Origin: an uncultured Desulfuromonadales bacterium
GTDB taxonomy: Bacteria > Desulfobacterota > Desulfuromonadia > Geobacterales > CAIOGM01
Length of the DNA: 64,000 nt
Reading direction: 5' to 3'
Assembly: GCA_903929485.1 (NCBI GenBank)
Contig: CAIYUY010000287.1
Span: 38-64,037, forward strand
The position numbers and the translations under genes were made by a program. Under the pieces are notes generated by a model. The model was not told where the DNA came from, did no database searches, and worked only from the letters and a program-made list of their open reading frames with translations. Within the stretch, counting starts at the first letter, position 1, and each line of letters opens with the position of its first letter. Positions 16,519-35,800 of this stretch are shown here, one piece after another.

Positions 16519-16553
16519 AACGCTCCGCTTCCGATCTTCGGAAGCGGAGCGTT
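16519..16553 (-). terminator. Hairpin AACGCTCCGCTTCCGA/TCGGAAGCGGAGCGTT immediately 3' of pyc remnant 1
   Basis: Read directly. It occupies the same position relative to the stop codon as the terminators of the other two pyc copies, but has a different sequence. Confidence 0.65.
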
Positions 16554-16576
16554 TTCACTTGTCATTTGAAAGAGCG

Positions 16577-16755
16577 TTACGCCAGCACGATGAGGAGGTC
16601 TTCCTTCTTTACCTTTTCCGCTTCCTTGAACTTCACCTCGGCGATGACACTATCTTCCTTGGCTTTGGGGTTGGTCTCCATCTTTATGGCCTCGGTGACC
16701 ATGAGGACATCGCGCACGGTCACCGACCGGGCATTGCCGTTCAGTTCGAAATAAC
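16577..16755 (-). pseudogene. Pyruvate carboxylase 3'-end remnant 1 (biotinyl domain tail with an internal deletion)
   Basis: It translates to YFELNGNARSVTVRD fused directly to VLMVTEAIKMETN...LLIVLA*. About 45 codons present in the intact copy are missing. Confidence 0.85.
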
Positions 16756-16756
16756 T

Positions 16757-16852
16757 CTGCTGGAAGATGTCGATATCACCGGCGCCAAGGGGGTTCTCGT
16801 CAACATCTGCTCTGCGGAAAAAAATCGACTGACCCTGGAGTGCCGGTGCTGA
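16757..16852 (+). pseudogene. Short FtsZ-like fragment (LLEDVDITGAKGVLVNI...RL...)
   Basis: About 13 of 17 residues are identical to the FtsZ segment LLEDIDLSGARGVLVNI as I recall it. The fragment abuts pyc remnant 1 and has no start codon of its own. Confidence 0.4.
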
Positions 16853-32775: not shown

Positions 32776-32830
32776 ACATCTTTACTACTCTACCCCTTAA
32801 GTCAAGTCAACGGGATAATGAAAGAAAAAA

Positions 32831-32856
32831 GAAGCCCCCGACGAATCGGGGGCTTC
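32831..32856 (-). terminator. pyc terminator hairpin GAAGCCCCCGA/TCGGGGGCTTC followed by a T-tract on the coding strand
   Basis: Read directly, 33 nt after the pyc stop. Confidence 0.8.
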
Positions 32857-32888
32857 CGTTGCCGCAGATCAGGTGAAGTGGCCGCCGG

Positions 32889-35800
32889 TCAGGCCAGCAC
32901 GATCAGCAGATCTTCCTTCTCCACTTTCTCACCTTCCTTGAACTTCACCTCGGCGATAACGCACTCTTCCCTGGCCTTGATGTTGGTCTCCATCTTCATT
33001 GCCTCGGTAACCATGAGGACATCCCCCACCTTCACCCCGTCACCGGCCTTGACGTTGACCTTGAGCACCTTGCCCGGCATGGGAGCGCCCAGATGCTTGG
33101 GGTTCCCCTTCTCGGCCTTCTCCCGCTCCTTCCCGTCGGTGGCGGCGGAGAGGTCGCGCACGGTTACCGACCTGGCGTTGCCGTTAAGTTCGAAGTAGAC
33201 CTGGCGGGTGCCGTCACCCTGAACCTTGCCGATGGCGTTGAGTTTGATAATGAGGGTCTTCCCCGGCTCGATGTCCAGGGAGGTCTCCTGCCCCGGCTCC
33301 AGGCCGTAGAAGAAGATGGGGGTTGGAATGACCGAGGTGTCGGAATAAAGCTGGCGATGCTGGTCCAGTTCCGGATAGACATGGGGATAGAGAATATACG
33401 AGATGAGCGCCTTGTCGTCTATCTTGTGCCCCACCTTCTCTTCCAGTTTCTCCCGTTCAACTTCGAACTCCACCGGCTCCAGCAGCTCTCCGGGGCGACA
33501 GGTGATGGGCTGCTCCCCTTTCAGGATAATCTTTTGCAGCTCCTCCGGCCACCCCTGGTACGGTTGGCCCAACATCCCCTTGAACATTCCCACCACCGAC
33601 TCGGGAAAAGTCAGCTCTTCCCCCTGGGTAAAGACATCCTCGGGCTGGAGGTTGTTCTTCATGAGGAAAATGGCCATGTCTCCCACGACCTTGGACGAGG
33701 GGGTGACCTTGACGATGTCGCCGAAGAGGAGATTTACCTTGTGGTACATCTCCTTGCACTCCTCCCATCGGTCCAGGAGTCCCAGTCCCGCCACCTGGGG
33801 TTTGTAGTTGGAGTATTGACCCCCCGGGATCTCGTGGTGATAGACCTCGGCCGTGCCGGATTTTAGTCCCGACTCGAAGGGGGCGTAGTAGTCGCGCACC
33901 GTCTCCCAGTAGTTGGCCAAGCTCTGGAGTCCGGCTGCGTTGACCATGGGATCGCGCTCTGTCCCCTCCATGGCCGCCACCAGGGCGTTCAGGTTGGGCT
34001 GGGCCGTGAGCCCGGAGAGAGAGGAGAGGGCGGCGTCCACGATGTCAACCCCGGCCTCGGAGGCCTTCAGGAGCATGGCGCTCCCGTTGGATGAGGTGTC
34101 GTGGGTGTGAAGGTGAATGGGGATGCCGATGTTCTCCTTCAGCGCCTTCACCAGCTTATAGGCTGCCTGGGGTTTGAGGAGGCCGGCCATGTCCTTGATG
34201 GCCAAAATGTGAGCCCCCATCTGCTCCAGCTCCTTGGCCATGTTCACGTAGTAATTTAGCGGGTATTTGTCCCGCCGGGGGTCGGTGATGTCGCCGGTAT
34301 AGCAGATGGCCGCCTCGCAGATCTTACCACTCTTTCTCACCGCATCCATGGCCACGGTCATCCCCTTGGTCCAGTTCAGGGAGTCGAAGATCCGGAAGAT
34401 GTCTATCCCCGAGTTGGCCGCCTCCTCGACGAACTTTTCCACCACGTTGTCGGGGTAGTTGGTGTACCCCACGGCGTTGCTCCCCCGGAGGAGCATTTGG
34501 AAAAGGATGTTGGGAATCGCCTCGGAGAGCTTGTGGAGCCGCTGCCAGGGGTCTTCCTTCAAAAACCGCATGGAGACGTCGAAGGTGGCTCCCCCCCAAC
34601 ACTCCAGGGAAAAGAGCTCCGCCCCCAGGTAGGAGGTGGGCTCGGCGATCTTGAGGATGTCGTGGGTTCTGACCCTGGTGGCCAGGTTGGACTGGTGGGC
34701 GTCCCGCATGGTGGTGTCGGTGAGGAGGAGCTTCTTCTGCTCCAGTATCCACTTGGAGAGCCCTTCGGCCCCCAGCATCATGAGGAGGTCGCGGCTCCCC
34801 GCCGGCCGCGATCTGGTGAAGTCAACCTCGGGCACCCGGGCTTCCATGAGATCGGCCGACTTGAGCGGCTTGACGATCCCCGGCGAGCCGTTAACGACCA
34901 CATCCCCCAGGAACTTGAGCACCTTGCTGGCTCGGTCTTTTTTCTCCCGGAACTGGAGCAGTTCCGGGTGTTTGTCCATGAAGGAGGTGTTGCATTTGCC
35001 TGCCATGAACACGGGGTGGGTGATGACGTTTTCCAGAAAACCGATATTGGTCTTGACTCCGCGGATCCGGAACTCCTGCAGCGCCCGGTGCATGACGTGA
35101 GCCGCGCCCTGGAAGGTGAGCCCCCAGGCGCTGATCTTCACCAGAAGGGAATCATAGTGGGGGGTGATCTTGGCGCCGTTGAAGGCGTTCCCCGCGTCCA
35201 GCCGGACGCCGAAACCGGCGGCGGAGCGGTAGGTGGTCAGCGTGCCGAAATCCGGCGCAAAGTTGTTTGCCGGGTCTTCGGTGGTGACCCGGCACTGGAT
35301 GGAGTAACCGCGGATGTCAATGGCGCTCTGGGAGGGGATGTTGATCTCCTGATCGGAGAGTTTGTACCCCTGGGCAACGAGAATCTGGTACTGCACCAGG
35401 TTGCGGCCGGTGATCATCTCGGTGACCGTGTGTTCCACCTGGATGCGGGGGTTCATCTCGATGAAATACCACTGTCCTTCCTGGTCCAGAAGGAATTCCA
35501 CCGTGCCGGCGTTGCGATATTTAACCTGACCGGCGATCTTCAAGGCTGCGTCGCAGAGCTCTTCCCGCTGGAGCTGAGTCAGGGAAAGAGAGGGGGCAAA
35601 CTCCACCACCTTCTGGTGGCGGCGCTGGATGGAGCAGTCCCTTTCATAAAAGTGGACGAGATTGCCGTAGTTGTCTCCCAGGACCTGCACTTCGATATGT
35701 TTGGGGTTCTCCAGGTAGCGCTCAAGAAAGACCGCGGCGTCACCGAAGGCCGCCTTGGCCTCGCTGGCGGCGGCGACCAGCCCTTCCAGCAACTCCTTCT

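Follow-up and report, generated by a model that had tools for sequence, protein, structure and literature searches.

The window, a stretch of 64,000 nucleotides that was analyzed as a whole, contains an intact pyruvate carboxylase gene (pyc) with approximately 17 kb of anti-phage and toxin–antitoxin genes directly on its 3' side (table 1). Two additional copies of the pyc 3' end are located among these genes, and the three ends are referred to as tail 1 (the end of the intact gene), tail 2, and tail 3. The closest available species to the window genome is a Geobacter MAG (L001), and the two pyc genes share 90.9% nucleotide and 96.4% amino acid identity.

The inserted genes form several modules. 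In the type I restriction-modification (RM) operon of island B, the hsdR, hsdM, and hsdS genes are all present and intact (full-length matches in Pfam and PADLOC). Homologs of this cassette share 68–81% amino acid identity across many phyla and are collinear in 80 loci, and in a Chlorobiaceae genome (L192) a homologous hsdRMS cassette lies on an integrase-bearing tRNA-Arg island with an approximately 100-nt repeat. The second part of island B, the m5C module, has a four-gene order that recurs in L281 and partly in L279 and L283; a locus search with the Response_reg_2 protein alone found no relatives among the species genomes. Island A encodes an HNH endonuclease and an FtsZ-like protein, and its gap sequences have no homolog in any of the fetched loci. 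An antisense open reading frame (16499-16852) with a weak match to FtsZ_C was judged spurious. The HigBA pair (15687..16291) is the outermost inserted module and is preceded by a promoter-like site at 16326-16298 (promoter scan, 11/12).

Table 1. Features of the pyc locus (window positions)
Feature	Position	Strand	Description
pyc, 1148 aa	32889..36335	-	Intact pyruvate carboxylase gene; Pfam Biotin_carb_N, CPSase_L_D2, HMGL-like, PYC_OADA, Biotin_lipoyl
Tail 1	32889-33484	-	Intact pyc end, last ~596 nt of pyc
Terminator T1	32830..32857	-	Intrinsic, after tail 1; GAAGCCCCCG..CGGGGGCTTC hairpin then T-run; terminator scan: 12 pairs, TTTTTTCTTTC tail
Type I RM operon	26475..32775	-	Island B, part 1; Pfam and PADLOC
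hsdR	29965-32775	-	Type I RM operon
GxxExxY/PDDEXK_3 gene	29482-29862	-	Type I RM operon
hsdM	27774-29438	-	Type I RM operon
hsdS	26475-27698	-	Type I RM operon
m5C module	20167..26311	-	Island B, part 2; Dcm/HEF_HK/receiver/Vsr; GC 32-47%
dcm	25205-26311	-	m5C module
GHKL/HEF_HK protein, 989 aa	22249-25218	-	m5C module
Response_reg_2 protein	20639-22252	-	m5C module
vsr	20167-20682	-	m5C module
Island B/tail 2 joint	20167..20189	-	Sequence and translation; no spacer, 0 nt between vsr and tail 2
Tail 2	19593..20188	-	Displaced pyc 3' end, pseudogene; equals ~pyc nt 2850-3447
3' flank of tail 2	19532..19592	-	Includes hairpin T2
Hairpin T2	19532-19559	-	After tail 2; T1 homolog (25/28 nt) without T-run
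Island A	16796..19531	.	HNH nuclease and FtsZ-like protein
Stretch of 660 nt	18870-19531		Island A; no recognizable gene
FtsZ-like gene, 239 aa	18150-18869	-	Island A
HNH_2 endonuclease, 374 aa	16881-18005	+	Island A; GC 35-39%
Tail 3	16577..16795	-	Most decayed pyc 3' end; clear homology to c. 16763
Hairpin T3	16519..16553	-	After tail 3; AACGCTCCGCTTCC..GGAAGCGGAGCGTT; ancestral Geobacteraceae pyc terminator type
HigB	16010-16291	-	Pfam and NCBIfam
HigA	15687-16013	-	Pfam and NCBIfam
Native pyc/isochorismatase intergenic hairpins	15602..15694	.	15602-15637 ancestral terminator type; 15653-15694 42-nt palindrome
Isochorismatase-family gene	14948..15580	+	Immediate convergent neighbor of pyc in L001

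The empty site and the three pyc ends

In L001 the pyc gene is directly followed, after 118 nt, by the isochorismatase gene and then by fabMG and dnaB, and HigBA is absent. The insertion is thus directly visible against an empty site, and on this comparison the segments between the tails are real insertions. The homology between L001 and the window resumes 6 nt past the pyc stop codon, at window position 15687, and the insert relative to L001 covers 15688-32888 (17.2 kb). A preliminary description of the locus had proposed islands A and B as insertions, which agrees with the comparison to L001, but the insert is wider than proposed and includes the HigBA module outside tail 3. The native intergenic hairpins still adjoin the isochorismatase gene. 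A search beside HigBA for a displaced 3' fragment of the isochorismatase gene found none; the hairpin alone is repeated.

All three pyc ends share the same orientation, and both extra copies are 5'-truncated and lie downstream of pyc. The matches of the repeats to the pyc gene of a related species are far above chance (blastn E-values 0 to 1e-49). Tail 2, together with its 3' flank to position 19532, matches the intact tail over 661 nt at 85.8% identity and carries two frameshifts, a −1 shift from the loss of one nucleotide at 19788/19789 and a +1 shift from an extra nucleotide in the C-run at 19728-19735, which together lead to a premature stop. Tail 3 retains the stop codon (16577-16579) and two pieces of clear homology, one at 16579-16711 that equals the final 133 nt of pyc and one at 16706-16763 that corresponds to 33150-33207. 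Between the two pieces an internal stretch of 132 nt has been deleted in frame, and the biotinylation motif of tail 3 is changed from AMKM to AIKM. The displaced ends are mutually 84–87% identical. Decay grows outward, from the two frameshifts of tail 2 to the large deletion, 5' truncation, and mutated biotinylation motif of tail 3, and the order of the layers (pyc-T1-island B-tail 2-T2-island A-tail 3-T3-HigBA) fits a stack of 3' ends with the newest inside and the oldest outside. The three ends in one orientation, the frameshift in the second and the shortened, internally deleted third had all been noted in the preliminary description and are confirmed by the alignments.

Every junction is spanned at 99.8–100% identity by contigs from independent samples (ENA, Logan, and NCBI; several per junction). 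The arrangement of the three tails is therefore no assembly artefact. Exact look-ups of the pyc, isochorismatase, HNH, HigA, and FtsZ-like proteins returned the same arrangement only, besides two partial strain variants. The window apparently derives from metagenomic assemblies, where strain mixtures can yield chimeras, but an explanation of the tails as such an artefact or as remnants of a tandem pyc paralog is scarcely credible given that the spanning contigs come from independent assemblers as well as samples, that L001 has a single pyc without any trace of a second copy, that the 5' truncation points differ and each tail has its own terminator, and that the tails nest within the orthologous clade (see below).

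The hairpins that follow the tails belong to two types. The preliminary description held that all three differ in sequence, which does not apply to T1 and T2: these are homologous (25/28 nt), and only T3 is of another type. The T3 type is found 3' of pyc in at least 39 out of 80 species, L001 included, whereas the T1/T2 type is found there in none of 80 other Geobacteraceae species. A scan of 185,579 species genomes for the tail-1/2 hairpin returned no Geobacter match and six unrelated ones (Microbacteriaceae and Bacteroidaceae), and a scan of metagenomes for this hairpin together with the pyc stop codon returned 69 matches, none of them related to pyc. Tails 1 and 2 thus have a common derived 3' flank and hairpin while the outermost tail 3 retains the ancestral terminator, as expected if older ends were pushed outward.

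Ancestry of the tails

The phylogenetic analysis places tail 1, tail 2, and the L001 pyc in one clade with 100% bootstrap support, and tail 3 pairs with L001 (96%). All three tails are 87–92% identical to L001 as compared with 80–85% to the next species and, on these data, belong in the clade of the window and L001. Their proximity to L001 indicates that the sources were close relatives, as a homology anchor requires. The relationship of tail 1, tail 2, and L001 is star-like, with L001 at least as close to tails 1 and 2 as these are to one another, so that the native allele cannot be picked among the tails. No divergence breakpoint was found along pyc between the window and L001, and the dS of pyc (0.44) is in line with that of the flanking genes (0.45–1.1); a mosaic pyc is therefore without support.

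The differences between tail 1 and tail 2 are distributed 11/9/56 over the three codon positions (dN/dS 0.08, dS 0.58). The substitutions private to tail 2 show the same bias (8/5/27, chi-square p = 2e-5), with 3/4/21 and 3/5/20 in the working genes. Comparisons among the long tails, namely tail 1, tail 2, and the L001 end, give a dN/dS of 0.07–0.08; the ratios for tail 3 (0.10–0.43) come from 129 nt only. Tail 2 is an allelic, formerly functional pyc end: the third-position bias of its private changes indicates that it was long part of a working pyc, which excludes a duplication in place. Judged by this pattern, it evolved mostly within the functional pyc of a sister lineage and is no local duplicate. 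A pyc paralog and an ancestral local duplication had been listed in the preliminary description as competing origins of the extra copies; the former is ruled against because the tails are orthologous alleles that group with the pyc of the window and L001 at 100% bootstrap, and the latter is ruled against for tail 2 by the codon-position bias.

The same data bear on a mechanism described for RM genes, insertion with long target duplication (Furuta 2010, PMC2853133; Nobusato 2000, cited therein), in which approximately 0.6 kb of the resident pyc end would have been duplicated in place and the working allele later swapped by homologous recombination. The locus resembles these insertions in that an insert <20 kb with R and M genes lacks mobility genes and is flanked by long direct repeats (>30 bp) that match a single-copy target in the empty-site genome, which are the criteria of PMC2853133. 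The published repeats range from approximately 46 to 423 bp, and the long ones (approximately 400 bp) are 93–99% identical (417/423, 388/397, and 384/412) and are read as duplications of the recipient target (PMC2853133). In contrast, the pyc repeats are approximately 600 bp long, 86% identical, and have independent histories under purifying selection. The private changes of tail 2 are impossible for a fragment that was dead from birth, the distance between tails 1 and 2 is no smaller than that of either to L001, and an extra allele replacement would be required per layer. Target duplication is thus a quite improbable source of the tails and is largely refuted by the codon-position bias of tail 2.

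Joints and the search for mobility genes

The joints of the insert are irregular and tight, and by their sequence they look illegitimate. At the joint of island B and tail 2 the vsr gene has lost its own stop codon: the last ~7 codons and the stop come from pyc-derived DNA, and the reading frame terminates 22 nt inside tail 2. Accordingly, the window Vsr extends 35 residues past the conserved VVWEC block as compared with 28 residues in the L281 homolog. At the other side of island B the gap between the pyc stop codon and the start of hsdR measures only 113 nt. The joint of the HigBA module falls no more than 6 nt from where the pyc stop codon lies in L001. Tail 2 starts at approximately pyc nt 2850 and tail 3 at approximately nt 3190 or later, although later deletions in tail 3 could mask a common start. 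Tails 1 and 2 share no identical run longer than 29 nt, a length that is unexceptional at 87% identity.

No recombinase, transposase, or relaxase was found in domain searches of the region (Pfam, NCBIfam, and PADLOC on the sizeable open reading frames, Pfam on the small gap open reading frames), in agreement with the preliminary description. The window contains no tRNA genes, and a tblastn search of the 15–33 kb region with an island integrase found nothing. Among 80 Geobacteraceae pyc loci (downstream flank up to 10 kb) none contains an extra pyc tail. A survey of 38 Geobacteraceae loci, with at most three open reading frames 3' of pyc in each (114 in total), found mostly housekeeping genes with variable synteny and neither a family-wide defence hotspot nor an integrase signal. 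Parental sequences, donor or recipient, were found neither by the metagenome scan nor by the genome scan nor by a protein search with the frameshift-corrected translation of tail 2, which returned short pyc fragments only (≤82% identity). Two of these fragments, on long contigs, were considered as displaced tails and rejected as frameshift-split pyc genes in noisy assemblies.

These results weigh on the possibility that two related integrative elements, each with a pyc-like end of approximately 0.6 kb and a GAAGCCCCC terminator, integrated in turn by means of a tyrosine or serine recombinase that was lost or acted in trans, every integration pushing the previous tail out. There are classical precedents in which prophages or islands enter a protein gene at its 3' end and bring a substitute for that end, such as e14 and phage 21 at icd and ICESt1/ICESt3 with CIME accretion at fda. 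As in these systems, pyc is functional through a substitute 3' end and the old end lies at the far border, and tandem accretion is known there. The direct-repeat architecture in a single orientation, the derived flank and hairpin that tails 1 and 2 share with none of the 80 species, the ancestral tail 3 that pairs with L001, and the hsdRMS homolog that travels on an integrase-bearing island at tRNA-Arg in L192 all agree with integration. However, the icd and fda elements depend on a recombinase and cross over at a fixed point with a defined att core, features of which none was found at the pyc locus, and the segments that they duplicate are shorter (from tens of bp to about 165 bp). In the 17 kb neither a recombinase nor a remnant of one was found, gap open reading frames included, the two borders of island B leave no room for such a gene, and the tails as preserved start at different points. 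Furthermore, no integrase family occurs among the common downstream neighbors of pyc, none of the 80 species has extra tails, and the tails are as near to the chromosomal pyc of L001 as to one another, which is unexpected for copies borne by an element, except where that element occurs in this clade only. Serial integration is therefore a rather unlikely explanation. Of the site-specific tandem accretion put forward in the preliminary description, the insertions, the displaced ends, and the absence of a mobility gene stand, and the ancestral outer terminator agrees with it, but nothing speaks specifically for site-specific integration, as neither a recombinase nor a clear common crossover point was found.

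Origin of the layers and comparison with known systems

The dead pyc ends are probably the footprint of recombination anchored in pyc rather than of an integrase-driven element. Specifically, the locus may well have arisen, at what we consider an even chance, by successive rounds of one-sided homologous recombination that used pyc as the anchor and ended in an illegitimate distal joint, leading to displacement of the 3' end. The mechanism, the order of the events, and the side that was anchored are what we infer from the arrangement of the sequence. Three modules would have been gained in turn 3' of pyc: HigBA, then the HNH and FtsZ-like genes, then the type I RM operon with the m5C module, each by homology-facilitated illegitimate recombination. 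The incoming DNA, derived from a sister Geobacter lineage and carrying pyc, its own terminator, and the downstream genes, would pair with the resident chromosome via the long and highly conserved pyc, and its far end would be joined illegitimately within the resident pyc 3' end or just past it. The incoming pyc end would then take over, and the resident end would be severed at the illegitimate joint and shoved outward as a dead fragment. A mirror version, with the anchor in isochorismatase/fabMG and a donor fragment that starts within the donor pyc, would give the same product. The preliminary description had mentioned homologous recombination with pyc as an anchor, which is closer to this model, but a pure double crossover fails because it leaves no duplicated tails, so that an illegitimate joint is required at one of the ends.

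The best interspecies anchor nearby is pyc itself: it spans 3.4 kb, is 90.9% identical to the L001 gene, and shares with it 51 identical stretches that reach ≥20 nt and 17 that reach ≥30 nt. The lost vsr stop codon is the sole indirect sign of a homologous crossover combined with an illegitimate joint. In experiments, homology-facilitated illegitimate recombination occurs only rarely, and to our knowledge natural transformation has not been established for the window organism. The segments of tails 1 and 2 could also be built-in homing arms of a family of defence cassettes without a recombinase, an improbable reading in which the cassettes would pass from one related genome to another by RecA-dependent pairing with a conserved housekeeping gene, which would renew the gene end and stack new cassettes upon earlier arrivals.

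Many defence islands lie between core genes without mobility genes, and their movement is often merely assumed. The pyc locus offers a concrete and testable case of homology-anchored gain of anti-phage genes at a housekeeping gene: the dead pyc ends serve as fossils of insertions at one spot, at least one displaced end having once been part of the working allele of another lineage. Tandem, diverged, 5'-truncated copies of the 3' end of a core gene provide a signature by which other genomes could be scanned.

Homology-facilitated illegitimate recombination (de Vries and Wackernagel 2002; Prudhomme 2002; Meier and Wackernagel 2003, as cited in PMC5361080; also PMC3240628) has one homologous anchor and an illegitimate far joint, and its predicted product matches the pyc locus. 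It was defined in the laboratory with short foreign segments, whereas the pyc locus would be a natural product with 0.8–12.6 kb per layer. The same process has been invoked for T6SS and rhs loci in which 3' ends were displaced one after another and left as orphans (Kirchberger 2017, PMC5361080), and C-terminal or 3'-end displacement is known from rhs, CDI, and T6SS effector–immunity arrays (Jackson 2009, as cited in PMC5361080; Kirchberger 2017). As in these arrays, the conserved 5' part of pyc stays in place, a new 3' end and its cargo are added, and the old ends are shifted distally as orphans. Unlike in these arrays, the pyc ends are orthologous alleles of a housekeeping enzyme without polymorphic toxin domains, the cargo consists of restriction and toxin–antitoxin genes (RM, HNH, and HigBA) instead of immunity genes, and the pyc end itself is under no obvious selection to diversify. 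The comparison suggests that the pattern of 3'-end displacement reaches past toxin loci.

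Extent and integrity of the insert

The source organism is a Geobacter, and its pyruvate carboxylase gene (pyc) shares 90.9% nucleotide and 96.4% amino acid identity with that of the closest species-level genome, an uncultured Geobacter MAG (L001). L001 has the order feoB-pyc-isochorismatase-fabMG-dnaB; pyc and the isochorismatase gene are 118 nt apart, and homology to the window picks up again at 15687, just 6 nt past the L001 pyc stop codon. Because L001 thus represents the empty site, the window contains a 17.2-kb insert (15688–32888). The preliminary description recognized this insert but made it too small, as the HigBA pair outside the outermost pyc remnant was also inserted. 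Its report of two further pyc 3' ends in the orientation of the intact gene was confirmed by repeat finding and alignment. The ends are referred to as tail 1 (intact), tail 2, and tail 3 (first and second displaced); island B lies between tails 1 and 2 and island A between tails 2 and 3.

Features of the pyc locus
Feature	Position	Strand	Remarks
pyc, intact (ends in tail 1)	32889–36335	minus	1148 aa, full domain set
Hairpin after tail 1	32830–32857		strong intrinsic terminator by score
Island B, part 1			type I RM operon: hsdR, GxxExxY/PDDEXK_3 gene, hsdM, hsdS
Island B, part 2	20167–26311		four-gene m5C module, GC 32–47%: Dcm, 989-aa GHKL/HEF_HK protein, Response_reg_2 (receiver) protein, Vsr
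Tail 2	19593–20188, 3' flank to 19532	minus	repeat finding and alignment
Hairpin after tail 2	19532–19559		25/28 nt homologous to tail-1 hairpin; without T-run
Island A			HNH_2 nuclease resembling modification-dependent restriction enzymes
Island A			FtsZ-like protein, 239 aa
Island A			660 nt without recognisable gene
Tail 3	stop codon 16577–16579; clear homology 16579–16711 and 16706–16763	minus	repeat finding and alignment
Hairpin after tail 3	16519–16553		type unlike tail-1/2 hairpins
HigBA pair	15687–16291		outside tail 3, within insert

An assembly artefact was ruled out: independent samples and assemblers yielded contigs that encode identical pyc, isochorismatase, HNH, HigA, and FtsZ-like proteins, and each junction is covered by several such contigs at 99.8–100% identity. 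One contig from a single sample (L089) is identical to the window up to a point midway in the HNH gene (17806) and then runs into 1.5 kb of unrelated DNA (L089 12860–14393; 39% GC, small unknown ORFs) that truncates the nuclease; the divergence stems from strain variation or from an assembly join. Two short contigs (L101 1–96 and L102 1–12), 99.8% identical to island A, depart from the window in the last tail-3 codons (left of 16581); this hints that the outermost module differs in some strains, though both contigs end too soon to show its identity.

The joints are tight and the displaced ends have unequal 5' limits (about pyc nt 2850 for tail 2, about nt 3190 or later for tail 3). The HigBA joint lies at most 6 nt from the L001 pyc stop codon position. 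The island B/tail 2 joint is spacer-free, with the vsr ORF reading through 22 nt of pyc-derived DNA to a stop codon; 28 residues follow the conserved Vsr block in a homologous module of another genome (L281) versus 35 in the window, and the joint therefore lies almost exactly at the natural vsr end. On the opposite side of island B, hsdR starts only 113 nt from the pyc stop codon, and this interval includes the terminator. A deleted recombinase gene would find no space at either end unless the deletions had been remarkably neat.

The native intergenic hairpins (15602–15637 and a 42-nt palindrome at 15653–15694) still adjoin the isochorismatase gene. The palindrome is perfect, occurs once in the window, and has a 28-nt core that is 100% identical in L001 (vs ~84% in the flanks); the whole insert starts exactly at its edge. 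Intergenic palindromic repeats of GTGAATAGTGAATGGTGAA units (13380–13448 and 39156–39209) have counterparts at matching places in L001. The higB gene (16010–16326 region) has a near-consensus promoter-like site (16326–16298, 11/12 positions), yet it is left uncalled on most of the strain's public contigs.

Origin of the displaced gene ends

Tail 2 matches the intact tail at 85.8% identity over 661 nt and carries two frameshifts (−1 at 19788/19789, +1 in the C-run 19728–19735) that lead to a premature stop. The frameshifts compensate each other, the +1 lying ~53 nt on in a run of eight C, so that the biotinyl-domain part is restored to frame and is called as a separate 41-aa ORF. The two pieces of tail 3 imply a 132-nt in-frame internal deletion; its biotinylation motif is gone (AMKM to AIKM) and similarity fades by ~16795.

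Tails 1, 2, and 3 show 89%, 88%, and 92% identity to L001 pyc, the next species being clearly lower (80–85%). Neighbour-joining analysis places tail 1, tail 2, and L001 in one clade with 100% bootstrap support, within which tails 1 and 2 group at just 55%, and tail 3 groups with L001 at 96% (129 nt available). Because they are nearest to L001 pyc by both identity and bootstrap clade, the tails are orthologous alleles of closely related lineages, and this grouping excludes the second pyc paralogue that had been considered as their source. Tail 1, tail 2, and L001 are related in a star-like manner, and the native allele therefore cannot be named.

Tails 1 and 2 differ at 11/9/56 sites in codon positions 1/2/3 (dN/dS 0.08, dS 0.58). 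The changes private to tail 2 (8/5/27, chi-square p = 2e-5) are distributed similarly to those in the working copies (3/4/21 in tail 1, 3/5/20 in L001). Since a fragment lacking the first 2.85 kb from birth should accumulate changes evenly over codon positions, the third-position bias argues that tail 2 spent most of its separate history in a functional pyc of another lineage; the small first-position excess (8 vs 3 in working copies) and the two indels suggest that it became a pseudogene only recently. A simple in-place duplication, the other alternative raised earlier, is rejected by this gene-like pattern. [quoted passage not shown]

At least 39 of 80 Geobacteraceae species, L001 included, have the hairpin type of tail 3 (AACGCyCCGCTTCC...) 3' of pyc, whereas none of the 80 has the type common to tails 1 and 2 there; a scan of 185,579 species genomes likewise gave no match to that type in Geobacter. 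On this distribution the outermost tail looks ancestral and the 3' flank common to tails 1 and 2 would be derived. The hairpins had been described as different after each tail, which holds for tail 3 and not for the homologous pair.

Cargo of the islands and its relatives

Domain searches of the ORFs in the insert region found no recombinase, transposase, or relaxase, in agreement with the preliminary description, and the window contains no tRNA gene. The hsdRMS cassette is promiscuous (68–81% amino acid identity over many phyla), with no homologue adjoining pyc or the m5C module. A Chlorobiaceae homologue (L192) lies in a classical tRNA-Arg island that also has a tyrosine integrase and a tRNA-derived repeat of ~100 nt; such cargo can therefore ride integrase elements, but that signature is missing in the window. 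None of 80 Geobacteraceae pyc loci (downstream flank up to 10 kb) contains an extra pyc tail, and the downstream genes are mostly housekeeping genes without synteny.

The GxxExxY/PDDEXK_3 gene is flanked by 47-nt inverted repeats (29453–29499 and 29901–29947) of AACCACGGAA-type units. Only 7 of 80 homologous cassettes carry a close homologue (64–73% amino acid identity) in the hsdR-hsdM spacer, and an eighth carries a distant one (35%); given the repeats and this rarity, the gene together with its repeats (29453–29947) may be a separate small insert.

The m5C module has a conserved, rare gene order that recurs in full in one other genome (L281 5933–12068) and in part in two more (L279 and L283). 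Its GHKL/HEF_HK protein has a BbrUII/HgiDII-like N-terminus, and its receiver protein has only 15 homologues (E ≤ 1e-20) among 5.8 billion proteins and no PADLOC model. The L281 module is surrounded by housekeeping genes, with no integrase within 10 kb. Only the C-terminal half of the island A FtsZ-like protein, neighbour of the restriction-type nuclease (both genes within 16881–18869), is clearly FtsZ-like. A 34% identical ORF occurs 3' of pyc in a Geoanaerobacter genome (L016 11121–15135), with a WYL regulator on one side and a GmrSD restriction enzyme on the other, and the two FtsZ-like sequences may belong to a defence-associated FtsZ-like family.

Formation of the stack

The defence and toxin-antitoxin modules after pyc form a genuine stack with clear limits, in which displaced allelic gene ends mark the seams. 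We see about an even chance that this stack was made by repeated one-sided homologous recombination. DNA from a sister lineage would pair with the resident chromosome through pyc, the longest and most conserved gene of the neighbourhood (51 identical runs of ≥20 nt vs L001), and its far end would be joined illegitimately inside the resident pyc end or just past it. The incoming pyc end and its downstream cargo would become proximal and the resident end be displaced; three rounds would yield the observed module order. The decay of the tails grows outward, as displacement predicts. Recombination the other way round, with its anchor on the isochorismatase side, would give an identical product.

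The main rival is the tandem accretion proposed earlier, by elements that bear a replacement tail and whose recombinase was lost or acts in trans. It is well matched by the derived terminator common to tails 1 and 2; it appears rather unlikely, as no recombinase is present, the joints are tight and irregular, and related elements are lacking at the 80 Geobacteraceae pyc loci. Recombination through pyc is deduced from its product, since a metagenome scan, a tail-2 protein search, and a genome scan found no donor or recipient lineage, the divergence along pyc between the window and L001 shows no breakpoint, and the alleles are star-like; pyc dS lies inside the range of the flanking genes.

The same displacement scheme as favoured here for the pyc tails was put forward for orphaned 3' ends at rhs and T6SS loci (PMC5361080), and the pyc stack fits best as a variant on displacement and accretion events already known.
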